A stretch of 64,000 bases of DNA from Chitinophagaceae bacterium (GCA_947372235.1 CANBSW010000001.1:3078-67077); one strand, 5' to 3'. Numbered from the stretch's first letter, positions 1,999 through 15,103 are shown. Notes: a model not told the origin generated them from the sequence alone. Made by a program: numbers and translations.

Positions 1999-2063
1999 TG
2001 TGAATGGTGTAAACATTTCCACACTTTATATAACAGTAAGAATTAATTAGTGATACAACTTTG
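1999..2063 (+). promoter_or_regulatory. Shared promoter motif, copy 1
   Basis: TGTGAATGGTGTAA(1999-2012)-N16-TATAA(2029)-N22-CAACTTTG(2056). Confidence 0.7.
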
Positions 2064-2157
2064 TAATACAAAAGACAATCACTCATGGAATTTCTTTTTA
2101 GCATAATTGGTATACTTATATTTTCATTCTTACTGATAAAACTGTCTTTTGTTAAAC

Positions 2158-2646
2158 ATGAAAACAAAACAACTATTGTTAACCGTATTTATTGGTATCC
2201 TGTTATTTACAGGAAACCTGATGGCACAAAGTTATCAAACAGGTCTGGGGGTAAGATTCGGTGGGTTAACCAACGGCCTGACAGTGAAATCATTTTTAAG
2301 TAAATCTTCCGCTGTTGAAGGAATTTTAAGTGTGGGTCATAAAAATTTCATCGTTACAGGATTATATGAAATGCATTCATCGATGGATCATTCCAGTCAG
2401 TTCAATGTATTTTATGGTTTTGGAGGCCATATAGGTTTTTTTCAGGATGGAGGAACTTATTATTACCATGATAACCGTTTATATACCAGTACAACTGTTG
2501 CAGGAGTAGACGGAATAATTGGACTGGATTATAAATTCAGAACCGCCCCTGTTAACATTAGTATGGACTTTAAACCATTTGTAGATTTCTTTAATGGTGG
2601 TATTGTTTATTTCGATGGGGGTATCAGTTTACGATATACGTTTTAA
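2158..2646 (+). CDS. Secreted hypothetical protein, probable small outer-membrane beta-barrel
   Basis: Signal peptide MKTKQLLLTVFIGILLFTGNLMAQ, alternating amphipathic strands, C-terminal ...SLRYTF aromatic beta-signal. Confidence 0.75.
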   Translation: MKTKQLLLTVFIGILLFTGNLMAQSYQTGLGVRFGGLTNGLTVKSFLSKSSAVEGILSVGHKNFIVTGLYEMHSSMDHSSQFNVFYGFGGHIGFFQDGGTYYYHDNRLYTSTTVAGVDGIIGLDYKFRTAPVNISMDFKPFVDFFNGGIVYFDGGISLRYTF

Positions 2647-2712
2647 ACTTTAAAAGAAGAACTTGAAAAATTTATTTTATACACATATCAATTAATCAAT
2701 TAAATCAATTCT

Positions 2713-2868
2713 ATGGGAAACTTATTATACACCATCGCAGTTATCCTCGTTATTATTTGGGCAATCGGATTTGTTGGATATGGTACCGGCGGTATCATAC
2801 ATATTCTTCTGGTAATAGCCATTATTATTGTGCTCTTGCGTGTGATTCAGGGTAGAAGGCCACTATAG
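2713..2868 (+). CDS. lmo0937-family (DUF5670) small membrane protein, 51 aa
   Basis: Hand translation: MGNLLYTIAVILVIIWAIGFVGYGTGGIIHILLVIAIIIVLLRVIQGRRPL*. Family pattern W-x-x-G...GG-x-IH-x-LLV-x-A. Below the ORF-track cutoff. Confidence 0.88.
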   Translation: MGNLLYTIAVILVIIWAIGFVGYGTGGIIHILLVIAIIIVLLRVIQGRRPL

Positions 2869-2948
2869 AGTGTTTTTTGAAGCAAAAAAATTATTTGCTT
2901 AACCCCTGGATCCGGCACAATATTTTCGGATAAGTCAATTGACTGTAT

Positions 2949-2980
2949 CACCCATCTGTAAAAAGATGGGTGTTTTTTTT
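2949..2980 (+). terminator. Intrinsic terminator
   Basis: CACCCATCT-GTAAAA-AGATGGGTG followed by T8. Confidence 0.8.
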
Positions 2981-3142
2981 ATGTATACTGGTTGCAATTC
3001 TTTTTTTATAACAGGAGAAATAAATCATCGCCAATTTCAAGTTAACGGGTTATGAAATCAAATAAAAACAGCGTTTCAATAACACAAAAAAGTATAATCA
3101 GTTTGATAAAATCTTTAACAGTCAAACATGTTAATTTAAATG

Positions 3143-3207
3143 TGTGAATCATGTAATCTTTTCATCTCAACGTGTAATGATATAGAAATCGTTGTGCATC
3201 AACTTTA
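3143..3207 (+). promoter_or_regulatory. Shared promoter motif, copy 2 (upstream of OmpA)
   Basis: TGTGAATCATGTAA(3143-3156)-N16-TGTAA(3173)-N22-CAACTTTA(3200). Confidence 0.75.
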
Positions 3208-3254
3208 CAATACGAATCATTACCTAATTAAGGGTTTGATATAAATCTACTGTT

Positions 3255-4664
3255 ATGAATAAAATTTTATTAAAATGTATTTGTTTATTTTCTGCAGCAT
3301 TTATTTGCATATCGGGAAGTATTGCACAAGATACAATGCGACAATCCACTGTAGAAGTGGCACCTCCCTTATTTAAAGGAAATCAAGGTTTCAGAACATG
3401 GTCTATCGGCGTTCATGCAGGAGCCATGGCACCATTTTCTGCATTTGGCGGAAGAAATGATTTCTCTAAATGGCAACCGGCTTTAGGGTATGGATTTTAT
3501 ATTAAAGACCAGATCTCACATACTTTTGGTATACAGGCCGATTTTATGCGTGGAACACTAAAAGCAAATAATGATAAATTATGGGTTGGGCTTCCACCTC
3601 CGGGACCATATGCTTCATTTAAAACAGACCTTAACTGGACAGCTGCTTTAAGTGCCGTTGTTATATTGGGAAATATCAACTGGTCACAATTACATACTTC
3701 TATACAGCCTTATGCTACAATAGGAGGTGGAGTAATGAGTTTCAATCCGCATCTTATTACCAAAGGTGGATTGGCAGTTGATTACAAACCATCTGGTAGT
3801 GTTTATGATTTTTATGTTCCTTTTGGAATGGGTTTAAAAGCAAATTTATCTCCCCGTGTAAATCTTGATCTGGGTTATACCATTGCTTTTGTTGATGGAG
3901 ATGATATGGATGGATATTTTAAAGATCCTATTCTAAGTGATAAATTTTCTTATTTACACCTTGGACTTGAATTTTCATTAGGTAAAGCAAACAAACCACA
4001 ATTGGCCCGTCACAATGCTCCTGCACAAATGCAGGACGAGATCAACAGTGCAGATAATGCATTGCGTGCATCTCTGGCAGCCAGCGAAGAGCGTTATAAC
4101 AGACGTTTAGCTGAATTGAATGCTTTGAAAGATGATATGGCCCGTATGAAAATGGATTCAGATGGTGATGGCGTAAGTGATTATTTTGATAAATGTCCTA
4201 ACACCCCTTTTGGTGTAAAAGTAGATGGAGCCGGTTGTGCATTGCCACTTCCTGCACCTGCAACGGTGGATACCATTGTTAAAATACAACAGAACACCAC
4301 TTATATTGTAACCAAAGAAGATAAAGAATTAGCAAACGATACTTTCCGTAACCTGGAATTTGATTTTGCAAAATCTACGATCAGACCACGCTCTTTTGTA
4401 TTTCTTAACAGACTTGCTGATCTGATGGTTAAAAAAGGAATCAGCCTGAAAGTTTCCGGACATACAGATAATGTAGGCTCAGATGCAGCAAATATGGAAT
4501 TGTCAAAAGACAGAGCTGAATCAGTTAAACACTATCTGATGAGTCAGGGAGTTAAAGAAGCCCGTATAGAAGCTACCTGGTTTGGAGAAAGACAACCCAT
4601 CGCTACTAATAAAACAGCAGAAGGACGTCAGAAAAACAGAAGAGTAGAACATACGATCTATTAA
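3255..4664 (+). CDS. OmpA-family protein (N-terminal beta-barrel, coiled coil, Ca-binding DSDGDG motif, C-terminal OmpA_C domain)
   Basis: Signal peptide; DSDGDGVSDYFDKCPNTP; FDFAKS, GHTDNVG, NMELSKDRA and NRRVE peptidoglycan-binding motifs. Confidence 0.92.
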   Translation: MNKILLKCICLFSAAFICISGSIAQDTMRQSTVEVAPPLFKGNQGFRTWSIGVHAGAMAPFSAFGGRNDFSKWQPALGYGFYIKDQISHTFGIQADFMRGTLKANNDKLWVGLPPPGPYASFKTDLNWTAALSAVVILGNINWSQLHTSIQPYATIGGGVMSFNPHLITKGGLAVDYKPSGSVYDFYVPFGMGLKANLSPRVNLDLGYTIAFVDGDDMDGYFKDPILSDKFSYLHLGLEFSLGKANKPQLARHNAPAQMQDEINSADNALRASLAASEERYNRRLAELNALKDDMARMKMDSDGDGVSDYFDKCPNTPFGVKVDGAGCALPLPAPATVDTIVKIQQNTTYIVTKEDKELANDTFRNLEFDFAKSTIRPRSFVFLNRLADLMVKKGISLKVSGHTDNVGSDAANMELSKDRAESVKHYLMSQGVKEARIEATWFGERQPIATNKTAEGRQKNRRVEHTIY

Positions 4665-4685
4665 TAGTTAAAAACCAATATTCTG

Positions 4686-4718
4686 GCCTGTAAGTTGTAA
4701 AAACTTACAGGCTTTTTT
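4686..4718 (+). terminator. Intrinsic terminator after OmpA
   Basis: GCCTGTAAGTT-GTAAA-AACTTACAGGC followed by T6. Confidence 0.85.
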
Positions 4719-4907
4719 ATAGTAAAGAACATAGCAGTGGTATGAGATTTTTGGGAACAGGGATGATTAGAAATGGTTAAAAAAGCAGCATAGTTTTCAC
4801 TTTTCTAACTACCTTTACTTACACATCCGTTTTCCAATCTTTCCCGCTATACTTTATCTTATCTTTGTTAAGTAATTGCATTCTCTGCAATTGTTAAAAT
4901 CTATATC

Positions 4908-5783
4908 ATGTCATTTGTTGATTATTATAAAGTATTAGAGATCGATAAAAATGCTTCTGAAGATGATGTCAAAAAAGCTTACCGCAAGCTGGCAAGAAAA
5001 CTACACCCGGATCTGAATCCTAATGACAAAGAAGCCAATAAAAAATTTCAACAGATCAACGAGGCCAATGAAGTGTTAAGTGATCCGGAGAAAAGAAAAA
5101 AATATAATCTCTATGGTGAGAATTGGGAGCATGGTGCTGAGTATGAACAAGCCAGAAAAAATCAATCTGAAAATAAAAACCGCACTTATAACGGGGGATT
5201 TGGTGAAGAGGATTATTCAGATTTTTTTGGTTCAATGTTTGGTGGAAGTGGTCGTGGAACTCAGACAAAATTCAGAGGGCAGGATTATAACAGCGAATTA
5301 CAGATCAATCTCACCAATGCCTACACTACCCATCAGCAAACATTATTGGTGAATGGAAAGAATGTACGAATTACCATTCCGGCAGGTATTGCCAATGCGC
5401 AAACCATCAAACTAAAAGGCTATGGCGGCAAAGGGATCAATGGCGGCCCTGACGGTGATCTTTTTATCACTTTCAATATAACCAACGATACTAAATTCAA
5501 ACGTATAAACAACGATTTATATGCTTCGGTCGATCTGCCTTTATATACTGCCGTATTAGGAGGTGAAATGATGGTGGATACGATAGATGGAAAGATTAAA
5601 TTAAAGATATCACCCGAAACACAGAATGGTACAAAAACAAGAATAAAAGGTAAGGGGTTCCCGTTTTATAAAAAAGATGGACAATTTGGTGATCTGTATA
5701 TTACCTATAGTATTAAAATACCTACACAATTATCTGAAAAAGAAAAAGAGTTGTTTGCAGAGTTATCCAAAATAATTCACTAA
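4908..5783 (+). CDS. cbpA: DnaJ-class co-chaperone, CbpA-like (J domain plus DnaJ_C, no Zn finger)
   Basis: DYYKVL, HPD motif (KLHPDLNP), G/F-rich linker, DnaJ_C with GDLYITY; followed by cbpM. Confidence 0.85.
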
Positions 5784-5787
5784 AAAA

Positions 5788-6093
5788 ATGATCATGGAAA
5801 CGCAGGAATTTATACCGCTAAATGTTCTATGTAGTCAATATGGTGTTGAAATGTCATTTGTCAGTTCTCTCCAACAATTTGGGTTGATTGAAATCGTAAC
5901 AGTTAATGAAGCTGAATGTATTCCTGTTAATCAATTAAAAGAAACCGAAAAACTGATCCGGCTTCATGATGAACTGGAGATCAACCTGCAAGGCATTGAT
6001 GTGGTTAGCCATATGTTACATCGAATGCAGGAAATGCAGAATGAGATACTAATGCTGCAAAACAGGCTTCTATTGTATGAGGATAATGAATGA
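5788..6093 (+). CDS. cbpM: Chaperone modulator CbpM (MerR-like)
   Basis: RLHDELEINLQGIDVV pattern; directly downstream of cbpA. Confidence 0.85.
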   Translation: MIMETQEFIPLNVLCSQYGVEMSFVSSLQQFGLIEIVTVNEAECIPVNQLKETEKLIRLHDELEINLQGIDVVSHMLHRMQEMQNEILMLQNRLLLYEDNE

Positions 6094-6352
6094 TTCTATT
6101 ATCCTTCTTGCGATGTTCCTAAACATAGTAATAAGTGTTACGAATAAAAGGAGGTGTATTTTATTGTATCTCTTTTGCGTGTAACTGCATATAACTGCAA
6201 ATCAGGCTCAATAAGCTCTGATTTGCGGAAACACCTGTGAATGTTGCGGTTCTTTGCGTTGCTATAGTAGCTTCCCCGCCTTAATTTGATCATTTTTTCT
6301 GCAGAGCATCCATTGTAACCGCTCAAAACCAACTTGCTATATCTTTTATATG

Positions 6353-6417
6353 TGAGAATCATGTAACAAATCAATCACCAGTTGTAACAATTATTCTGTT
6401 TTAAGTTCACAACTTCA
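6353..6417 (+). promoter_or_regulatory. Shared promoter motif, copy 3
   Basis: TGAGAATCATGTAA(6353-6366)-N16-TGTAA(6383)-N22-CAACTTCA(6410). Confidence 0.72.
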
Positions 6418-6475
6418 TATTGTGAAAAACAATTCCAATCAACCCTTGCAACCTGTTCCTGGTAAACTGTATAAT

Positions 6476-6778
6476 ATGAGAAATAATATTGGATATATCG
6501 ATAAAACCATGCGTATGCTGGTAGTGATCATTATTGGCTGCCTTGTATTTTCCAAATTGATTATTGGTGTAGCGGCTATTTTACTTTATGTATTAGCGAT
6601 CGCTTTGGTATTTACCTGTTTTAAAGGCAGTTGCCCGGTATATCGCCTATTGGGTATAAATACTAAAAGAAACCTGAATGATAAAGCAAAGATCCATGAA
6701 CGTAACCAGGCTTTACTCAAAAACAATAACAACAATTATAAATACATGTTCTCAGTACCCGGGAAGGGCATCCATTAA
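6476..6778 (+). CDS. DUF2892 (YgaP-like) two-TM membrane protein
   Basis: NIGYIDKTMR...TCFKGSCPVYRLLGINT matches the N-x-G-x-x-D-R / C-P-x-Y-x-x-x-G-x-x-T pattern. Start ATG 6476. Confidence 0.85.
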   Translation: MRNNIGYIDKTMRMLVVIIIGCLVFSKLIIGVAAILLYVLAIALVFTCFKGSCPVYRLLGINTKRNLNDKAKIHERNQALLKNNNNNYKYMFSVPGKGIH

Positions 6779-6856
6779 AGAAAAAAAAATAATCATACTA
6801 TTCCTTACACAAATCAAATTTCAATTATTATCTATTAATCTCAAACAATTATTATC

Positions 6857-7159
6857 ATGAAAAAGATCATTTCTCTTATTGTATTTGCAGCATTTATTTT
6901 GAACATTTCTGCACAAACAACAACTCCTACAAAGAAAGCTGCAGAAAAATCTATGCGTACTGATGTGACCATTTTAAAAGATGAGCGCAAAGAGCGCAAT
7001 GCTGCTATTTTAAAAGGGAAACTGAAAACTGCAAAAAAAGAGCAGGCCGAGATCACAACAGCCAGAAAGCACATGAATGCAAATAAAAAACACTTGAAAA
7101 ACAAAGGAGTTAAAACGCCAGTTAAAAAAGCCAAAGAACAGGTTGACGGCGGTAAGTAA
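6857..7159 (+). CDS. Small secreted Lys/Ala-rich hypothetical protein
   Basis: Signal peptide MKKIISLIVFAAFILNISAQ; basic helical mature part; followed by a terminator. Confidence 0.75.
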   Translation: MKKIISLIVFAAFILNISAQTTTPTKKAAEKSMRTDVTILKDERKERNAAILKGKLKTAKKEQAEITTARKHMNANKKHLKNKGVKTPVKKAKEQVDGGK

Positions 7160-7173
7160 TTATGGATAGTCAG

Positions 7174-7206
7174 ATTGCCCATACGTATCTCATATGGGCA
7201 ATTTTT
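7174..7206 (+). terminator. Intrinsic terminator or hairpin
   Basis: ATTGCCCATA...TATGGGCAAT followed by a T run. Confidence 0.7.
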
Positions 7207-7245
7207 ATGCTATAACAAGGATTAATATTTTAAACAGACAGTTTT

Positions 7246-8025
7246 ATGAAACAGGGAATAATCTTGCGGGGAAAGAAAATACTGGAGAGTATTGGAGATT
7301 ATACTGAGTTCTTCAAATCTGTTATCACAAATACCTTCCGCAGAGGGTTTGAATGGAATGAATTGATCAGACAGTGTTACCTGGTTGGTGTAAGGTCGAT
7401 AAATATTGTTTTGGTTACTGGTTTTGTGTTAGGATTTGTACTTACACTACAATCACAGCCTACACTAAAAGCTTTTGGTGCGGAGGGCTTTGTGCCTAAT
7501 ATGGTTGCAGTTTCCATTATTCGTGAAATAGGGCCGGTAATTATTTCACTTATTTGTGCCGGCAAAATTGCATCAGGTATTGGTGCAGAAATTGGAAGTA
7601 TGAAAGTTACTGAACAGATAGCCGCAATGGATGTATCCGGAGCTAATTCCATACAATACCTGGCAGTTACAAGAATACTTGCCTGTATTTTTATGGTTCC
7701 TTTACTGGTGCTCTTTGCAGATGCAATGTCATTACTGGGAGGATATGTTGGAACCAATATTTCAGGCAATATGACAGCTGTTTTATATTTCAACAAATCA
7801 TTTTCATCTTTATTATTTTCTGATTTTTTCCCATCGCTGATCAAAACTTTTTTCTTTGGATTCATTATTGGATTTGTTGCATGTTTTAAGGGATTTCATG
7901 CAAACAGAGGAACAGAAAGTGTAGGTATCGCCGCAAATTCTGCAGTGGTATCTGCATCTTTTTGGATCATTCTCATAGATGCCCTGGCTGTTCAATTAAC
8001 CAGCATTTTTGTGTACAATCAATAA
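7246..8025 (+). CDS. mlaE: MlaE-family ABC permease
   Basis: REIGPVI, GAEIGSMKVTEQI-x-AM, and GTESVG-x-A-x-x-x-AVV motifs. Confidence 0.92.
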   Translation: MKQGIILRGKKILESIGDYTEFFKSVITNTFRRGFEWNELIRQCYLVGVRSINIVLVTGFVLGFVLTLQSQPTLKAFGAEGFVPNMVAVSIIREIGPVIISLICAGKIASGIGAEIGSMKVTEQIAAMDVSGANSIQYLAVTRILACIFMVPLLVLFADAMSLLGGYVGTNISGNMTAVLYFNKSFSSLLFSDFFPSLIKTFFFGFIIGFVACFKGFHANRGTESVGIAANSAVVSASFWIILIDALAVQLTSIFVYNQ

Positions 8026-8027
8026 TC

Positions 8028-8756
8028 ATGGAAACAGTAATCGAAATAAAAGACCTTAAAATAGCATTCAACGGGAAACCTGTTTTAACGGGTATTAACC
8101 TTACACTGTGCAGGGGAGAGAACCTTGCCATTATAGGTAGGAGTGGTGAGGGTAAAAGTGTAACCATAGAATGTATTGTAGGCTTGCTAACTCCCGATGA
8201 AGGAACCATTACCGTTTTAGGAAAGGATATAACAAACCTCGATTCCGACGAGTTAAAAGAATTACTTCTACATACCGGGTTTCTGTTCCAGCAATCCGCT
8301 TTATACGATTCAATGACGGTAAGAGAGAATCTTGCATTTCCTTTAATAAGGGTATTAAAAATTAGCGACGAAGCAGAAATTGAAAAAAGATCTGTTGAAG
8401 CACTGGAAGCGGTAGGTCTTGCAGCGGCGATCGATAAAATGCCATCAGATCTTTCGGGTGGGCAACGCAAAAGAATGGCATTGGCCAGAACCCTGATAGT
8501 GAATCCGGAAATCATATTGTACGATGAACCTACTACAGGCCTGGATGCCATCACCTCCAAAGAGATCAGTGCGCTGATCATGGATATCAGAAAAAAATAC
8601 AAATCATCTTCCATTATTATCACACACGATATGTCTTGTGCAAAAATTACAGCAGACCGGATACTGATCATCAATGAAGGGAAGATCATTGCCGGAGGAA
8701 CTTACAAGGAACTGGAAAATTCATCTGATCCCTTTATCGCTTCATTTTTTAAATAG
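8028..8756 (+). CDS. mlaF: MlaF-family ABC ATP-binding protein
   Basis: GRSGEGKS (Walker A), FQQSALYDSMTVREN, LSGGQRKR, ILYDEPTTGLD. Start ATG 8028. Confidence 0.92.
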   Translation: METVIEIKDLKIAFNGKPVLTGINLTLCRGENLAIIGRSGEGKSVTIECIVGLLTPDEGTITVLGKDITNLDSDELKELLLHTGFLFQQSALYDSMTVRENLAFPLIRVLKISDEAEIEKRSVEALEAVGLAAAIDKMPSDLSGGQRKRMALARTLIVNPEIILYDEPTTGLDAITSKEISALIMDIRKKYKSSSIIITHDMSCAKITADRILIINEGKIIAGGTYKELENSSDPFIASFFK

Positions 8757-8762
8757 TGTATT

Positions 8763-9539
8763 ATGCAGGTTACTACAATAACAAAAATTAAAACAGGTGC
8801 ATTTGTATTGGCTGGTATTGTCGTTTTATTGATGATTATATTCTTTATAGGCAACCAGAAAAATCTGTTCAGGAGAACCATACAGTTACACATCAATTAC
8901 AAAACCGTTGCCGGATTGCAGGAAGGAAATTTTGTGCGGTTTGCAGGGATCAATGTGGGTTCTGTAGACATGATCGAAATAACAAGCGATACAACCGTTC
9001 GCGTAGATATTTCCATACAAAAGAAAGTACAGAAATTCATACGCACAGATAGTAAAGCCAGTATTGCCAATGATGGGTTGATGGGAGATAAACTGATTCA
9101 GATTAATTCAGGTTCTGACAGTCAGCCGATCATTACGGAAGGAGGTAATCTGGTTGCAGTTAACCCATTTGACATGGAAAAAATCATGGCAAAAATTGAG
9201 AAGGTTGGCATTAAAGTAGAAAATATTGTAAACAATATAGATACACTTTCCGGACAACTCTCCGGTATTTTCGGAAAAGTAAATAATGGGAAAGGCACAT
9301 TAGGTAAACTTATCAATAGCGAAAAATTAGCCAACGACCTGCAACAGACAGTTAATTCTGCCAAACAAACCGTAAAAACCATTGATAAAGCAGCGGATGG
9401 TATCAAGGATAATATGGATGCAGCGAAACATAATTTTCTCCTGAAAGGGTTCTTCAATAAGAAAGAGAAAAAAGGGATCGCAGATTCTACAACGAAAGCA
9501 GATAAGAAAAATGCGCCTAAACCGGAAATAAAGAACTAA
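8763..9539 (+). CDS. mlaD: MlaD/MCE-family protein
   Basis: N-terminal TM, GL-x-x-G-x-x-V-x-F-x-GI-x-VG-x-V, GLMGDK, coiled coil with GTLGKLI. Confidence 0.92.
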   Translation: MQVTTITKIKTGAFVLAGIVVLLMIIFFIGNQKNLFRRTIQLHINYKTVAGLQEGNFVRFAGINVGSVDMIEITSDTTVRVDISIQKKVQKFIRTDSKASIANDGLMGDKLIQINSGSDSQPIITEGGNLVAVNPFDMEKIMAKIEKVGIKVENIVNNIDTLSGQLSGIFGKVNNGKGTLGKLINSEKLANDLQQTVNSAKQTVKTIDKAADGIKDNMDAAKHNFLLKGFFNKKEKKGIADSTTKADKKNAPKPEIKN

Positions 9540-9542
9540 TGT

Positions 9543-10820
9543 ATGCGCGATATTTTTTCACTGCAGAGTTGCAGCGGAGCATTGTTTTCGCGGAAAATAT
9601 GTTCTCTGCGAAAAAGTATATTACGCTGTGCATCTTTGGTTGGCTTTTGTTTGATAAGTATGACGGTATTCCCGCAGGCTATTACACCCAAAAAAGATAC
9701 GGCAGAACAGAGAGATCTGATTGATATCGCCAAACAAACCTTTCATTTTCACGCCAAAAAAATGCCGAAGAATGGTATAAAAAAAGTGTACTATTCTTTT
9801 TTGCCTTTCAGTACACAGATGCCGGGTGGTGGTAATGCTTTGGTTAGTGCCACCACTGCAGGTTTTTATTTGAGCGACAGAAAAAAAACATCTTTGTCAA
9901 CAGCTACCTTTTATCCTTACCTGACTTTAGTGGGCCGATTCGGTTACAGTTTACAAACCGGTTTATGGTTAAAAGAAAATAAATGGAATGTTTTGGGAGA
10001 TACACGATACCTGTATTATCCGCAAAATACTTGGGGTTTAGGAGGCAAAATGCCGAATGATCATAAGGTGGAAGTTCAATACAAATACATCCGTTTTTAC
10101 CAGACCTTTCTGCGGCAGATAGAACCCTATTTTTTAGCAGGCATAGGATATCACATCGATAACCATATTAATATACAAACCATTAATGATACCCTTGGTT
10201 TGCAAAAATTTACCGGATATGATTATGGAACAGAAACCGGTTCCACTTCTTTTTCAACCGGTATTTCTTTCAATGTATTGTATGACGGAAGAAAGAACGC
10301 GTTCAACCCATTGCCAGGTTATTATGGAAATCTGGTGTACCGGTTCAGCCCTAAATTTTTAGGTAGTAATAACAACTGGAATTCACTATACCTTGATCTT
10401 CGGCACTACATACCTTTTAGTACAACACAACAGAACATGCTTGCATTCTGGACATTTTACTGGACGGGTTTGAATGACAACACACCGTATCTTGACCTCC
10501 CCAGTATTGGCTGGGATCCTTATCAGCAGCGTTCCGGACGCGGTTTTGATCAGAACCGTTACCGTGGAAAAGGGTTGCTTTATTTTGAGACAGAATATCG
10601 CAAAGACATAACAGAGAATGGTTTATTCGGGTATGTATTGTTTGCCAATTTTAATAGCGTTACCGAAAAAAACAGCAGTCAATATGCGTATCTCCATATG
10701 GCAGCAGGAGGAGGCTTACGTATAAAATTCAACAAAGGTTCCGGTACAAATATGGGAATCGATTTTGGGGTTAGCAAAGGATATGCAGGTTTGTATTTTA
10801 ACCTTGGTGAAACTTTTTAG
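9543..10820 (+). CDS. Omp85 (BamA/TamA-type) beta-barrel without obvious POTRA domains
   Basis: YDGRKN-x-FNP-x-x-G, DLRHY, GRGFDQNRYRG (loop-6-like), E-YR and terminal NLGETF. The start position is uncertain. Confidence 0.8.
   Translation: MRDIFSLQSCSGALFSRKICSLRKSILRCASLVGFCLISMTVFPQAITPKKDTAEQRDLIDIAKQTFHFHAKKMPKNGIKKVYYSFLPFSTQMPGGGNALVSATTAGFYLSDRKKTSLSTATFYPYLTLVGRFGYSLQTGLWLKENKWNVLGDTRYLYYPQNTWGLGGKMPNDHKVEVQYKYIRFYQTFLRQIEPYFLAGIGYHIDNHINIQTINDTLGLQKFTGYDYGTETGSTSFSTGISFNVLYDGRKNAFNPLPGYYGNLVYRFSPKFLGSNNNWNSLYLDLRHYIPFSTTQQNMLAFWTFYWTGLNDNTPYLDLPSIGWDPYQQRSGRGFDQNRYRGKGLLYFETEYRKDITENGLFGYVLFANFNSVTEKNSSQYAYLHMAAGGGLRIKFNKGSGTNMGIDFGVSKGYAGLYFNLGETF
9553..9615. repeat. CGCAGAG/CTCTGCG-type palindromic element overlapping the 5' end of the Omp85 gene
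   Basis: TTTTTTCACTGCAGAGT...ATGTTCTCTGCGAAAAA, similar to 60385-60452. Confidence 0.5.
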
Positions 10821-10903
10821 AAGGCACTAAAAATAAAATATTACGAGGGAGCTCTAAATGAAACCCAGTTTGATCATTTTAAAATCTATTATTTAAAAAG
10901 AAT

Positions 10904-12007
10904 ATGGATACTATAAAAATACCATTCTACGCCAAAACAGCACTGATATTCATTTCGGGATATGCTTTTATTTATGCACTTTACCTTGGCCAGAATATTA
11001 TTGTACCTATTGTATATGCAACGCTGATTTCTATTCTCCTGAATCCAATTGTTAATTTTCTGGTCAGGAAAAAACTGAATAAAATACTGGCTATTTCGAT
11101 GGCAGTGATATTGGTTTTTTTAATTACAGCCTGCCTGCTTTATTTTATTTCTACCCAGATTTCAATGTTTGCTGAAACTTACCCGCAGCTTAAGGTAAAA
11201 ATGTTAACTACCAGTAATCAGGCAATTCATTCATTTTCTCAACATTTCAATATTAAAGAGAAAAAGGTCAATGAATGGATTCAGCATAATGAAGATATTA
11301 TTTTCAGCGATGCGGGTCTAATGGTTGGGCGAACCCTGCTTAATTTAAGCAGTACTTTTTTTGTTTTGTTATTACTCCCTGTCTATTTATTTATGATCCT
11401 GTATTATAAATCCCTGCTTCTTGAATTCATCCGTCGTTTATTCAGGGCAGAACACCATACTTCTGTTGCAGAAGTACTTAATAATACCAAAGTAATTATA
11501 CAAAGTTACCTGAAAGGGCTTTTAATTGAAGCATTAGTGATTGCAATACTTAATTCAGCCGGTTTGTTGTTACTTGGCGTTGAGTATGCAATTATACTGG
11601 GTGTTACCGGGGCATTGCTTAACGTAATTCCCTATATAGGAGGGGTGATTGCTATTGCTTTGCCTATGGTGATTGCATTTGTTACCAAGGATTCTGTTTC
11701 ATATCCTTTTCTGGTATTGGGGATCTATCTGCTTATTCAGTTTATCGATAATCACTACATTATTCCAATGGTGGTTGCATCCAAAGTAAAGATCAATGCA
11801 CTTGTTTCGGTGGTTGTTGTATTGGTAGGTGGGGCAATCTGGGGCATTCCCGGAATGTTCCTGTCAATTCCTCTTACCGCAATTTTGAAAGTTATTTTCG
11901 ATCATATTGAAATCCTGAAGCCATGGGGTTATTTGCTGGGCAACATTGAACCGAGTGCCAGTAAGTTCACATTACGTAAAATGAGAAAAATCAATGAAAA
12001 AAAATAA
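10904..12007 (+). CDS. AI-2E family transporter
   Basis: Multi-TM; IPYIG, QFIDNHYIIPMVV and WGIPGMFLSIP motifs. Confidence 0.92.
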   Translation: MDTIKIPFYAKTALIFISGYAFIYALYLGQNIIVPIVYATLISILLNPIVNFLVRKKLNKILAISMAVILVFLITACLLYFISTQISMFAETYPQLKVKMLTTSNQAIHSFSQHFNIKEKKVNEWIQHNEDIIFSDAGLMVGRTLLNLSSTFFVLLLLPVYLFMILYYKSLLLEFIRRLFRAEHHTSVAEVLNNTKVIIQSYLKGLLIEALVIAILNSAGLLLLGVEYAIILGVTGALLNVIPYIGGVIAIALPMVIAFVTKDSVSYPFLVLGIYLLIQFIDNHYIIPMVVASKVKINALVSVVVVLVGGAIWGIPGMFLSIPLTAILKVIFDHIEILKPWGYLLGNIEPSASKFTLRKMRKINEKK

Positions 12008-12046
12008 CTGTGTTTTAGGTTTTACAAAAACCAATGAAACTGATAA

Positions 12047-12111
12047 TGTGATTTATGTAATATTCTGCAAAAATCATGTAAGTACATTAATATCAGAATA
12101 GTTCAACTTTA
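12047..12111 (+). promoter_or_regulatory. Shared promoter motif, copy 4
   Basis: TGTGATTTATGTAA(12047-12060)-N16-TGTAA(12077)-N22-CAACTTTA(12104). Confidence 0.75.
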
Positions 12112-12179
12112 CTGTAACATCATTCCATCATAAGGGTAATGATAACAAAGACTTTATCTGATTGTTAAACATAAAAATT

Positions 12180-12695
12180 ATGATAATAAAAAAAGTAGTA
12201 GTAGCCCTTGCAATGATTTCTGTGATGGCAGCATGTAATAGTAAACCAAAAGAAGTTGCAGTAGTGGTTGATACTACTGCGATTAAACAAAAAGCAATTT
12301 TTGATGAACAGGCCAGGGTTACATCTGAAGAAGAAGCCCGCCAAAAACTGGCACTGGAAAAAAGAAGGGAGCACCGCAGAGAAAATGAAGAATCTGCTTC
12401 TTCATCCAATGTTGGTAACAGTGGCACACCTGTAAATGCAGGTTCCGGAACTTCTTCTGAAGCTGCTCCTGCAAAAAAAGGATGGAGCTCTGCAGCCAAA
12501 TCAACGGCTATAGGTGCCGGTGCCGGTGCTATTGCAGGTGGAATTATTGGCCATAATCTTGGTGGTGCTGCTATTGGTGCTGCGGTAGGTGGTGGTACCG
12601 GTTATTTGATCGGTAGAGCTAAAGACAGAAAATCAGGAAGGGTGGTAAAAAAAGTCAAACCCGTTAAACCGGTCGAACCACCTGTCGAACAATAA
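12180..12695 (+). CDS. YMGG-like glycine-zipper lipoprotein
   Basis: Lipobox MAAC; KKGWSSAAKSTAIGAGAGAIAGGIIG...GAAIGAAVGGGTGYLIGRAKD. Confidence 0.88.
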   Translation: MIIKKVVVALAMISVMAACNSKPKEVAVVVDTTAIKQKAIFDEQARVTSEEEARQKLALEKRREHRRENEESASSSNVGNSGTPVNAGSGTSSEAAPAKKGWSSAAKSTAIGAGAGAIAGGIIGHNLGGAAIGAAVGGGTGYLIGRAKDRKSGRVVKKVKPVKPVEPPVEQ

Positions 12696-12775
12696 ATAAC
12701 GGATATCTAATACCATTTCGATATTAATATTAGTCTATACAAACTCTGATAGTCTGTATGTCGTAAAGAAAATTT

Positions 12776-12814
12776 GCCACAGAATACACGAAAAAGTCTG
12801 TGCTAATCTGTGGT
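12776..12814. repeat. GCCACAGA/ATCTGTG palindromic family, degenerate copy
   Basis: GCCACAGAATACACG...TCTGTGCTAATCTGTGG. Confidence 0.65.
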
Positions 12815-12843
12815 GTTTTTAAAAATTCTAATTGATATAAAAG

Positions 12844-12907
12844 TGCGAAACATATAATTTATTGAAGGGGATCTGTAACATTTTTTACTGTAATAAAGTA
12901 ATCTTTG
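12844..12907 (+). promoter_or_regulatory. Shared promoter motif, copy 5 (variant spacing)
   Basis: TGCGAAACATATAA(12844-12857)-N16-TGTAA(12874)-N21-AATCTTTG(12900). Confidence 0.55.
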
Positions 12908-13002: not shown

Positions 13003-13296
13003 ATGAAAAATTTATTGCATCGTTGCGGAATTAAAACCTGTATAACATTAATCATTGTTTTTTTCTTTCAGGCAGTTGTTCTTGCCCAGAATACCAAAGT
13101 TGAAATAAACGGTAATGATGTGGGCAGTTGGTTTTCGCAGAATTGGATCTGGATAACTGCACTGGTTGCTTTTCTGATCATTATTTTAATATTCAGTGCC
13201 ACCAGCAACAGGCGTAGCAGGAGCAAAACCACAATTTACAAAAACCATGATGGCAAAGTTGTTCAAACAACTACTACAGAAACAGAAACGGATTAG
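13003..13296 (+). CDS. Small hypothetical membrane protein
   Basis: Signal-like N-terminus, TM segment WIWITALVAFLIIILIF, polar TTTTE tail. Confidence 0.75.
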   Translation: MKNLLHRCGIKTCITLIIVFFFQAVVLAQNTKVEINGNDVGSWFSQNWIWITALVAFLIIILIFSATSNRRSRSKTTIYKNHDGKVVQTTTTETETD

Positions 13297-14997: not shown

Positions 14998-15103
14998 GCA
15001 AATGAATATCGAACAGATGAACAAGGAACAGATGAATGATGAAGTGGAAAAATAATATTTACTTCATCATTCATCTGCTCCTTGTTCAATATTCATCTGT
15101 TGC
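14998..15103. repeat. GAACAGATGAATGATGAAGT-family inverted-repeat element
   Basis: Left arm ...GAACAAGGAACAGATGAATGATGAAGT (to 15045) pairs with right arm ACTTCATCATTCATCTGCTCCTTGTTC (from 15061). Confidence 0.8.

Follow-up and report, generated by a model that had tools for sequence, protein, structure and literature searches.

Five genes or operons in a 64,000-nucleotide stretch of DNA from a Chitinophagaceae bacterium (GCA_947372235.1, CANBSW010000001.1:3078-67077; the whole stretch is called the window below) are preceded by the same array of three short boxes. This raises the question of whether the array is a genuine promoter element and, if it is, what kind of protein acts on it. A preliminary description, made from the sequence of the window, had singled out the five promoters as a candidate regulon. 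We observed that the pattern TGNGA-N4-TRTAA-N16-TRTAA starts at positions 1999, 3143, 6353, 12047 and 12844, in each case on the + strand, and that the third box follows after 22 nucleotides (nt) at sites 1 to 4 and after 21 nt at site 5 (Table 1). The period of the two repeats is exactly 21 bp in all five sites. Every site is intergenic and lies 48-98 nt 5' of the start codon of a + strand gene. Positions, spacings and placement thus read exactly as the preliminary description had given them. With up to one mismatch allowed, the pattern has 5 matches in the window against 0.26 expected, a number reached by none of 100 shuffles; the bare pair TRTAA-N16-TRTAA has 7 matches against 1.5 expected.

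A weight matrix provides a stronger test, because both of these patterns were derived from the window sites themselves. We built an independent two-block matrix from 121 sites of other genomes only, none of which belongs to the genome of the window; proteins of these foreign loci reach at most about 60% identity to those of the window genes. The foreign-site matrix scores the five window sites at 24-47 bits, site 5 being the weakest. The spacer one base shorter that distinguishes this site (offset 58) is a minority variant that recurs in other genomes. On both strands of the window no sixth position passed the entry filter (upstream block of at least 8 bits), which bears out the earlier impression that the window has no further copy; across 20 mononucleotide-shuffled versions of the window just one position passed it, with a total of -6.3 bits. 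No Rfam family matched on the sites. We regard it as practically certain that the five window sites are real copies of a conserved promoter element.

The element is found across a phylum. We scanned the genomes of 185,579 species with the degenerate pattern TGNGA-N4-TRTAA-N16-TRTAA-N22-CAACTT and obtained at least 120 loci; among the matches listed, 119 are labelled Bacteroidota and one carries no label. The orders among these matches are Bacteroidales, Chitinophagales, Flavobacteriales, Cytophagales, Saprospirales and Sphingobacteriales. Counts given below on 120 loci or 121 matches refer to these listed matches, with loci of 8 kb each. Foreign sites are clustered, with 2-6 sites per 8 kb in 74 of 123 loci.

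Numbering the T of TGTGA as position 1, we observed strong conservation at positions that the search pattern left free: A-2 (87%), T3 (85%), A6 (92%), T7 (85%), A9 (77%), T19 (82%), T28 (87%), T29 (79%), T64 (90%) and G65 (71%). The resulting consensus is A(-3)A(-2)tG TGTGAAT n A TGTAAC ttt T ... A(26) R T T R TGTAAC a c t T(40) ... AAA(49-51) ... t CAACTTTG y A, and the whole promoter unit is about 70 bp long. The repeat unit is longer than TGTAA: it is the 15-bp sequence AATnRTGTAACnnnT, present at positions 5-19 and 26-40 with an exact shift of 21 bp, or two helical turns. Over about 240 foreign sites, 11 of 13 conserved positions agree between the two copies, and the distal repeat alone is extended 5' by AATGTG. 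We also considered a hairpin or palindrome formed by the TAACTT...AAGTTA dyad between the boxes and rejected it: Watson-Crick pairing equals expectation and there is no covariation.

The promoter of the Bacteroidota σA holoenzyme consists of a -33 element, TTTG, and a -7 element, TAnnTTTG. To remove the bias of the search pattern, we examined 111 further sites chosen by the upstream block alone, and in these the downstream box at the fixed position reads [C39 T29 G18 A12] A87 [C52] [C54 T32] T100 T100 T83 G62. The third box is thus a σA-like -7 box, yAyCTTTG, at positions 58-65 and at a fixed distance from the repeats, and it would correspond to TAnnTTTG with the first T relaxed: this T is present in 29% of the block-chosen sites and in none of the five window sites, where A (87% in the block-chosen set) and TTTG are kept. 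This supports the weakened -7 box of the preliminary description. Only 15 of 239 sites have a -33 TTG in the expected region, and no window site has one; TGTAAC stands there instead, and the proximal TGTAAC ends 21-22 nt before the -7 box, again at a fixed distance. A same-strand open reading frame (ORF) starts with ATG within 400 nt of the motif in 113 of the 121 matches, mostly at 20-100 nt. An ORF within 400 nt follows 199 of 240 sites, and in these the ATG lies a median of 41 nt past the G of the -7 box. Transcription would be expected to start about 5 nt past the box, near position 70; the repeats would then span about -69 to -30, and the proximal repeat, at about -44 to -30, would take the place of the -33 element. 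The geometry suggests that these promoters are very probably of σA type and activator-dependent.

A separate feature is found at the downstream edge of some sites. The 16-bp palindrome GTGAAAATTnATTCAC occurs in 18 of 240 sites, and 15 of these 18 copies begin exactly at motif position 70, approximately at the predicted transcription start (loci L001, L019, L022, L026, L056, L065, L071, L100, L102 and others). The genes downstream are unrelated to one another (CsbD-like, ice-binding-like and others), and window site 3 has a degenerate copy (Table 1). The palindrome may form a hairpin at the 5' end of the mRNA, or it may be an operator to which a second regulator binds.

Which protein might occupy the repeats is suggested by the genes around the foreign sites. 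We clustered the ORFs of the 120 loci and examined the clusters with at least 5 members. The commonest cluster consists of PAS-HisKA-HATPase-REC hybrid kinases (60 in 40 loci). The second, with 31 genes spread over 28 of the 120 loci, is a protein of 179-187 amino acids (aa) that carries an HTH_18 domain of AraC type, and it is the sole DNA-binding family enriched near the sites. Its members are about 60% identical across orders, and their helix-turn-helix (HTH) helices are nearly invariant (DYTYLANLFSE, YSSVAHLSNQFKK), which matches the invariance of the DNA boxes. In an AlphaFold (AF2) model with a pLDDT of 88, the N-terminal domain has the order β-α-β-β-α-β and the HMA fold found in copper chaperones and related domains (Atx1, GolB; TM about 0.68), and the C-terminal domain is a MarA/SoxS/AraC DNA-binding domain with two HTH motifs (TM about 0.8). 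In most members the metal-binding CxxC has become SxxC, so that a single, nearly invariant cysteine is left. A full-library profile search at E<=1e-30 finds about 968 clusters at 50% identity, well apart from generic AraC proteins, and neither Pfam nor NCBIfam has a model specific to this HMA-like/AraC family.

The linkage between this family and the element is close. An operon of regulator and hybrid kinase, in some cases followed by a REC-PP2C phosphatase, is recurrent. In 10 of the 31 genes, all from loci ascertained by the motif, the TGA stop codon of the regulator is the TGA of the next site's TGTGAAT (Table 1), and the same layout is found in loci ascertained by the protein. A site lies 43-71 nt upstream of the regulator start codon in 5 of the 31 genes and 198-263 nt upstream in 2 more. 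In the reverse test, five loci fetched by the protein and not by the motif hold 4, 4, 4, 6 and 5 sites within 20 kb; these are all at or just past the 3' end of the regulator gene in four loci, and in L126 they lie on both sides of it. The two Flavobacterium-type regulators (SYGYLSN.., ..STQFKNT) are paired with divergent sites (TGGGAAT or TGAGAAT, TATAAC and a weak proximal AATT), in numbers (n=2-4) too few to count.

From these observations, we hypothesize that σA RNA polymerase alone would use these promoters poorly, and that the two DNA-binding domains of an activator, placed on the tandem repeats, would bring in the polymerase, by analogy with class II activation as known from the AraC/XylS family. 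The most likely activator would be the 179-187 aa protein, with its N-terminal HMA-like ferredoxin-fold domain and its C-terminal MarA/SoxS-like two-HTH domain, and the signal would probably be delivered by the PAS hybrid histidine kinase that usually shares its operon and by the REC-PP2C phosphatase that sometimes does. We consider it likely that the HMA-like/AraC family supplies the activator, and reasonably likely that the model as a whole, class II activation of σA promoters by this regulator, is correct.

Evidence from RNA was available for one locus. At the Flavobacterium resistens locus L101, where the motif lies at 1788-1850, four metatranscriptomes (X6-X9) have no contigs over 1674-1871, and the earliest RNA contig among them starts at 1872, 15 nt past the predicted transcription start. 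A fifth RNA run (X10) has no coverage of 1673-2186. The window itself is contained only in low-depth freshwater metagenome contigs, which give no information on transcript ends.

A published data set for Flavobacterium psychrophilum adds context. In this species 103 genes are weakly expressed in all 32 conditions (Guerin et al. 2021, Table S4, PMC9723704). A large share of them forms one largely co-directional block, THC0290_1141-1210 of F. psychrophilum OSU THCO2-90, on which the paper does not comment (PMC9723704). The block holds a 179-aa AraC-family regulator (1150), a hybrid kinase (1152) and a response regulator (1153), together with THC0290_1158, annotated as 'ribonuclease BN' and read here as BrkB/YihY-like; THC0290_1166, a 'PH1107-related glycosidase' that we read as GH130; the group-1 glycosyltransferase THC0290_1167; the peptidoglycan-binding protein THC0290_1181; the Usp protein THC0290_1182; an ABC permease, ATPase and membrane protein (THC0290_1187-1189), which we read as Mla-like; and the outer-membrane protein THC0290_1191 (PMC9723704). 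By annotation alone, these appear to be the same families as those in the neighbourhood of the motif. The published table of transcription starts for F. psychrophilum contains no start with the motif, which fits a silent island and provides no start-site evidence. Motif and regulator may offer an explanation for this block of about 60 kb, silent in 32 laboratory conditions, through a link based on annotation.

How well does the proposed mechanism stand against other explanations? The main rival accepts the activator-dependent promoter and has it bound by a different transcription factor whose gene lies elsewhere; the AraC gene would then be no more than a common constituent of the regulon or island. 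We think this unlikely, but several observations lend it substance or weigh against our own interpretation. There are five sites in the window and no regulator gene; the preliminary description was right that the block encodes none, and the gene is also absent from the 6 kb upstream, so that the regulator must act in trans in this genome and its link to these sites comes from other genomes. In 92 of the 120 loci there is no AraC copy within 8 kb, which is expected of a gene present at 1-2 copies per genome, yet is not proof. A site often stands in front of the AraC gene itself, which is what one would expect of a target, and conserved synteny might account for the linkage, in which case the AraC gene would belong to the regulon without regulating it. 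The distal box TGTGA, which may resemble a CRP half-site, belongs to an AATGTG/TGTGA extension that two identical protomers do not account for, and an HMA-like domain of 65 aa would have to dimerise or sense a signal. The RNA support comes from low-depth contigs, so the L101 pattern, which is consistent with the model, is coarse; a run of unknown type ends a contig at 1797, inside the L101 motif, and being ambiguous was not used. Lastly, the F. psychrophilum island with the same annotated families is silent in all 32 conditions. Against a different transcription factor, no further DNA-binding family is enriched among the clusters, site clusters are present in five of the five protein-anchored loci, tandem direct repeats of 21 bp abutting -33 are the classic AraC/XylS arrangement, and there is neither an inverted repeat nor the covariation that would suit a dimer of the CRP/FNR type.

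The remaining alternatives fare worse on the same evidence. A repressor that keeps the island silent by binding the repeats as its operator is improbable. AraC-family proteins can repress, and the silent F. psychrophilum island would agree with such a role; but the sites lie upstream of the -7 box (about -69 to -30) and not over it, and the promoters have no -33 element and a weakened -7 box and should therefore be weak even when unoccupied. Binding by a LytTR-type response regulator of the AgrA/ComE kind, a lead given in the preliminary description, had in its favour the 21-bp period of direct repeats just upstream of the core promoter and the many LytTR proteins that Bacteroidota encode. This lead did not hold up: the pair of [TA][AC][CA]GTTN[AG][TG] motifs at 21 bp occurs in 0 of 239 sites and in none in the window, a single 9-mer occurs in 3 of 239, and Pfam assigned none of 30 of the 32 largest clusters (at least 5 members) to LytTR, the other two (111 aa and 64 aa) being too short for a LytTR response regulator. 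We accordingly judge it quite improbable. Between an activator and an alternative sigma factor near -33, which the preliminary description had offered together, the layout speaks for the former, with 21-bp repeats beside or over -33 and no -33 TTG. An ECF-type factor would have to read TGTAAC as its -35 and CTTTG as its -10. Many ECF -35 elements do contain AAC; in L123 and L007 the gene immediately downstream of a site codes for an ECF sigma factor, and L095 has a third such gene. Yet the spacer from TGTAAC to the box is 20-21 nt and not 16-17, the box retains the σA-specific A and TTTG at the σA position, only 4 of 239 sites have CGT in their -10 region, a sigma factor would not need a second upstream repeat, and only 3 loci show linkage to an ECF gene, whereas the AraC protein is linked in about 33; this makes an ECF factor very improbable. 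Finally, the AT-rich genome and a first pattern built from the sites themselves could have suggested chance similarity or copies of a small repetitive or mobile element. Shuffles are near-empty, the independent matrix recovers five of five sites, only discrete positions are conserved while spacers differ, the strand is always that of the downstream gene, and conservation spans the phylum. The shuffles, the genome scan, the conservation of free positions and the foreign-site matrix together refute this reading, to which we give next to no probability.

Class II activation by the HMA-like/AraC protein can be compared with several known systems. Direct repeats with a period of about 21 bp, the proximal of which overlaps -35, are the binding sites of AraC at I1-I2 (pBAD), of XylS at Pm, of RhaS and of MelR. 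The present element likewise has two repeats whose centres are about 21 bp from each other, the proximal one abutting or overlapping the position equivalent to -35, and a weak core promoter, and the linked candidate regulator has a two-HTH AraC DNA-binding domain. It differs in that the core promoter is of the Bacteroidota -33/-7 type, that the candidate is in an operon with a hybrid histidine kinase, and that this protein has only about 185 aa and an HMA-like N-domain instead of a cupin or sugar-binding domain. MarA, SoxS and Rob resemble the candidate as small AraC-type activators, are its closest structural match in the DNA-binding domain, and use an asymmetric box beside the core promoter to act at many dispersed promoters of stress and envelope genes. 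MarA and SoxS are monomers on one 20-bp box, whereas here two phased repeats are always present and the protein has an extra N-terminal domain. Sites of the LytTR regulators AgrA and ComE are 9-bp consensus repeats separated by 12 bp, direct repeats with a 21-bp period; they share with ours this period immediately upstream of the core promoter, and differ in the mismatch to the consensus and the lack of a linked LytTR gene. We thus propose that the mechanism would be of a known kind, class II AraC-type activation on tandem repeats, in a new form that combines a -33/-7 core, an HMA-like N-domain, a kinase-linked operon and a phylum-wide regulon of stress type. Within the phylum, other promoter classes that depart from TTTG/TAnnTTTG have been published: PM2 of B. 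thetaiotaomicron has -10 and -30 elements and is nearly palindromic (PMC7366714), and in F. psychrophilum SM4 is σ54, SM5 is TAnnTTGY and SM6 is an ECF-like CGT class (PMC9723704). We considered whether PM2 or any of SM1-SM6 is the motif described here, and found them to be different motifs; PM2 and SM4-SM6 have no tandem TGTAAC repeats.

The genes behind the sites are of a recognizable kind. First genes behind 113 foreign sites include OmpA (10), ice-binding-like proteins (5), DUF4142, DUF748, BrkB, β-barrel outer-membrane proteins, YtxH, CsbD, DUF5670, DUF892, KaiC, PAS histidine kinases and bestrophin-like proteins, and clustering of all ORFs in the 120 loci adds MlaEFD, AI-2E, a GT1 and GH130 pair, Usp, DUF4382, cupin and several conserved proteins without a family. 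CsbD, YtxH, DUF892, Usp, OmpA, BrkB, KaiC, DUF4142, glycine zipper and DUF5670 are all content typical of general stress regulons, and by analogy the set looks like a regulon of general-stress type that would control envelope and stress genes. The regulons of σB in Bacillus, σS in E. coli and EcfG in Alphaproteobacteria share with it CsbD, YtxH, DUF892/YciF-like, Usp, OmpA-like, glycine-zipper and small membrane proteins and KaiC, and hybrid kinases and a REC-PP2C phosphatase are encoded alongside, as with RsbK/RsbY of B. cereus. Unlike these regulons, the common promoter element here looks dependent on σA with an activator, and not on a dedicated sigma factor. In L123 (13998-14631) and L007 (6359-6964) a strong site is followed directly by a gene for an ECF sigma factor of about 170 aa, and in L095 (6270-6779) such a gene lies within an island; this suggests that the ECF gene is a target, forming a sub-cascade inside the regulon in some lineages.

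Further signalling genes were seen in the islands. REC-PP2C phosphatases of RsbY-like type are encoded in L019, L046, L088 and L116, a DUF6272 protein weakly similar to SiaB-family kinases in L009, L026, L035, L097, L099 and L111, and a dCache-SpoIIE phosphatase in L121 (4158-6062). By analogy, these parts recall stress signalling by partner-switching.

Soil, freshwater, marine and gut communities all have Bacteroidota among their major members, and to our knowledge no general stress regulator or regulon has been established for them. The full-text literature that we searched contains no description of the motif, of the regulator family or of a general stress regulon of Bacteroidota, so the view of the preliminary description that the regulon is undescribed agrees with the published record as searched. 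It is tempting, and at present speculative, to see in the motif, the HMA-like/AraC regulator, the PAS hybrid kinases, the REC-PP2C phosphatase and the SiaB-like kinase the missing general stress or dormancy response of the phylum. If this were true, a general stress response would for the first time be known to act through an AraC-type activator of σA promoters and not through an alternative sigma factor. Its regulator might be gated by a phosphorelay, by a partner-switch, or through the nearly invariant cysteine in its vestigial metal-binding loop. The motif is a precise cis-element that can be used as a genome-wide predictor; it defines about 30 recurrent gene families, many of unknown function, and it comes with a single candidate regulator family (about 970 sequence clusters) and a candidate signalling operon. 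An undescribed general-stress-like regulon thereby becomes directly testable.

Table 1. Promoter sites, transcription units and associated features (positions counted from the first nucleotide of the window).
Feature	Position	Strand	Boxes and spacers, or content	Third box	Predicted transcription start	Matrix score (bits)
Site 1	1999..2063	+	TGTGAATGGTGTAA, N16, TATAA, N22	CAACTTTG at 2056-2063 (-7 box)	~2068	42.0
Site 2	3143..3207	+	AATG-TGTGAATCATGTAA, N16, TGTAA, N22	CAACTTTA at 3200-3207	~3212	47.4
Site 3	6353..6417	+	TGAGAATCATGTAA, N16, TGTAA, N22	CAACTTCA at 6410-6417	~6422	29.3
Site 4	12047..12111	+	TGTGATTTATGTAA, N16, TGTAA, N22	CAACTTTA at 12104-12111	~12116	35.4
Site 5	12844..12907	+	TGCGAAACATATAA, N16, TGTAA, N21	AATCTTTG at 12900-12907		24.1 (upstream block 26.3)
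Transcription unit 1	2158..2868	+	162-aa exported protein, no Pfam match (2158-2646); DUF5670/lmo0937-type small membrane protein (2713-2868)			
Terminator-like hairpin	2949..2972	+	closes unit 1			
Transcription unit 2	3255..4664	+	469-aa OmpA-family outer-membrane protein: β-barrel, TSP_3 repeat, OmpA domain			
Terminator-like hairpin	4685..4713	+	closes unit 2			
Transcription unit 3	6477..12007	+	YgaP-like/DUF2892 membrane protein, 100-aa protein, MlaE, MlaF, MlaD, Omp85-like protein, AI-2E transporter			
Transcription unit 4	12180..12695	+	glycine-zipper (YMGG-like) lipoprotein-like protein			
Transcription unit 5	13003..13296	+	97-aa small membrane protein			
Degenerate palindrome copy (site 3)	6422..6437	+	GTGAAAAACAATTCCA			
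Regulator stop codon overlapping TGTGAAT box (other loci)			L052, L067, L076, L081, L098, L103, L111, L113, L123-L125			

The genes behind the window sites agree, in our gene and domain assignment, with the identities proposed in the preliminary description. Two hairpins set the first three transcription units apart (Table 1). A site immediately precedes each of the 17 homologues that the window OmpA gene has in other loci, and also 2 of 3 homologues of the 162-aa exported protein; MlaEFD and AI-2E are among the commonest families around foreign sites, and some of these homologues have a site directly upstream.

In front of the 162-aa gene (start at 2158) there is also a hydrophobic ORF of 72 aa at 2085-2303, which begins 22 nt past the -7 box of site 1 and overlaps that gene in another frame; on the near-identical contig L127 the gene caller picked the 162-aa gene and not this ORF.

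Between units 2 and 3, at 4908-6093, the window encodes a DnaJ-like (CbpA-type)/MerR_2 operon without a repeat site, which has its own canonical -7 box, TATCTTTG, at 4860-4867. The DnaJ-like and MerR_2 pair was also seen in L126 (8296-9500), L005 and L065, and in L126 it is directly upstream of the HMA-like/AraC gene.

The surroundings of the window could be extended on one side. An exact-protein look-up with the window OmpA gene gave no match, and near-identical contigs (99.8% identity; L127 and L128) were found through the diacylglycerol-kinase gene. Positions 1-3493 of L127 and 1-6138 of L128 are the DNA upstream of window position 1. These 6 kb contain neither a motif copy nor a regulator gene, and they carry genes of island type: a 787-aa GT1, DJ-1/PfpI, a second AI-2E transporter, a Dps-like ferritin and an iron permease. 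Further into the window, a 28-bp inverted repeat at 15018-15088 (96% complementary, 15-nt loop) occupies the divergent spacer between a carboxyltransferase gene (- strand) and a GMC oxidoreductase gene (+ strand), and it gave rise to spurious sub-threshold Rfam miRNA matches.

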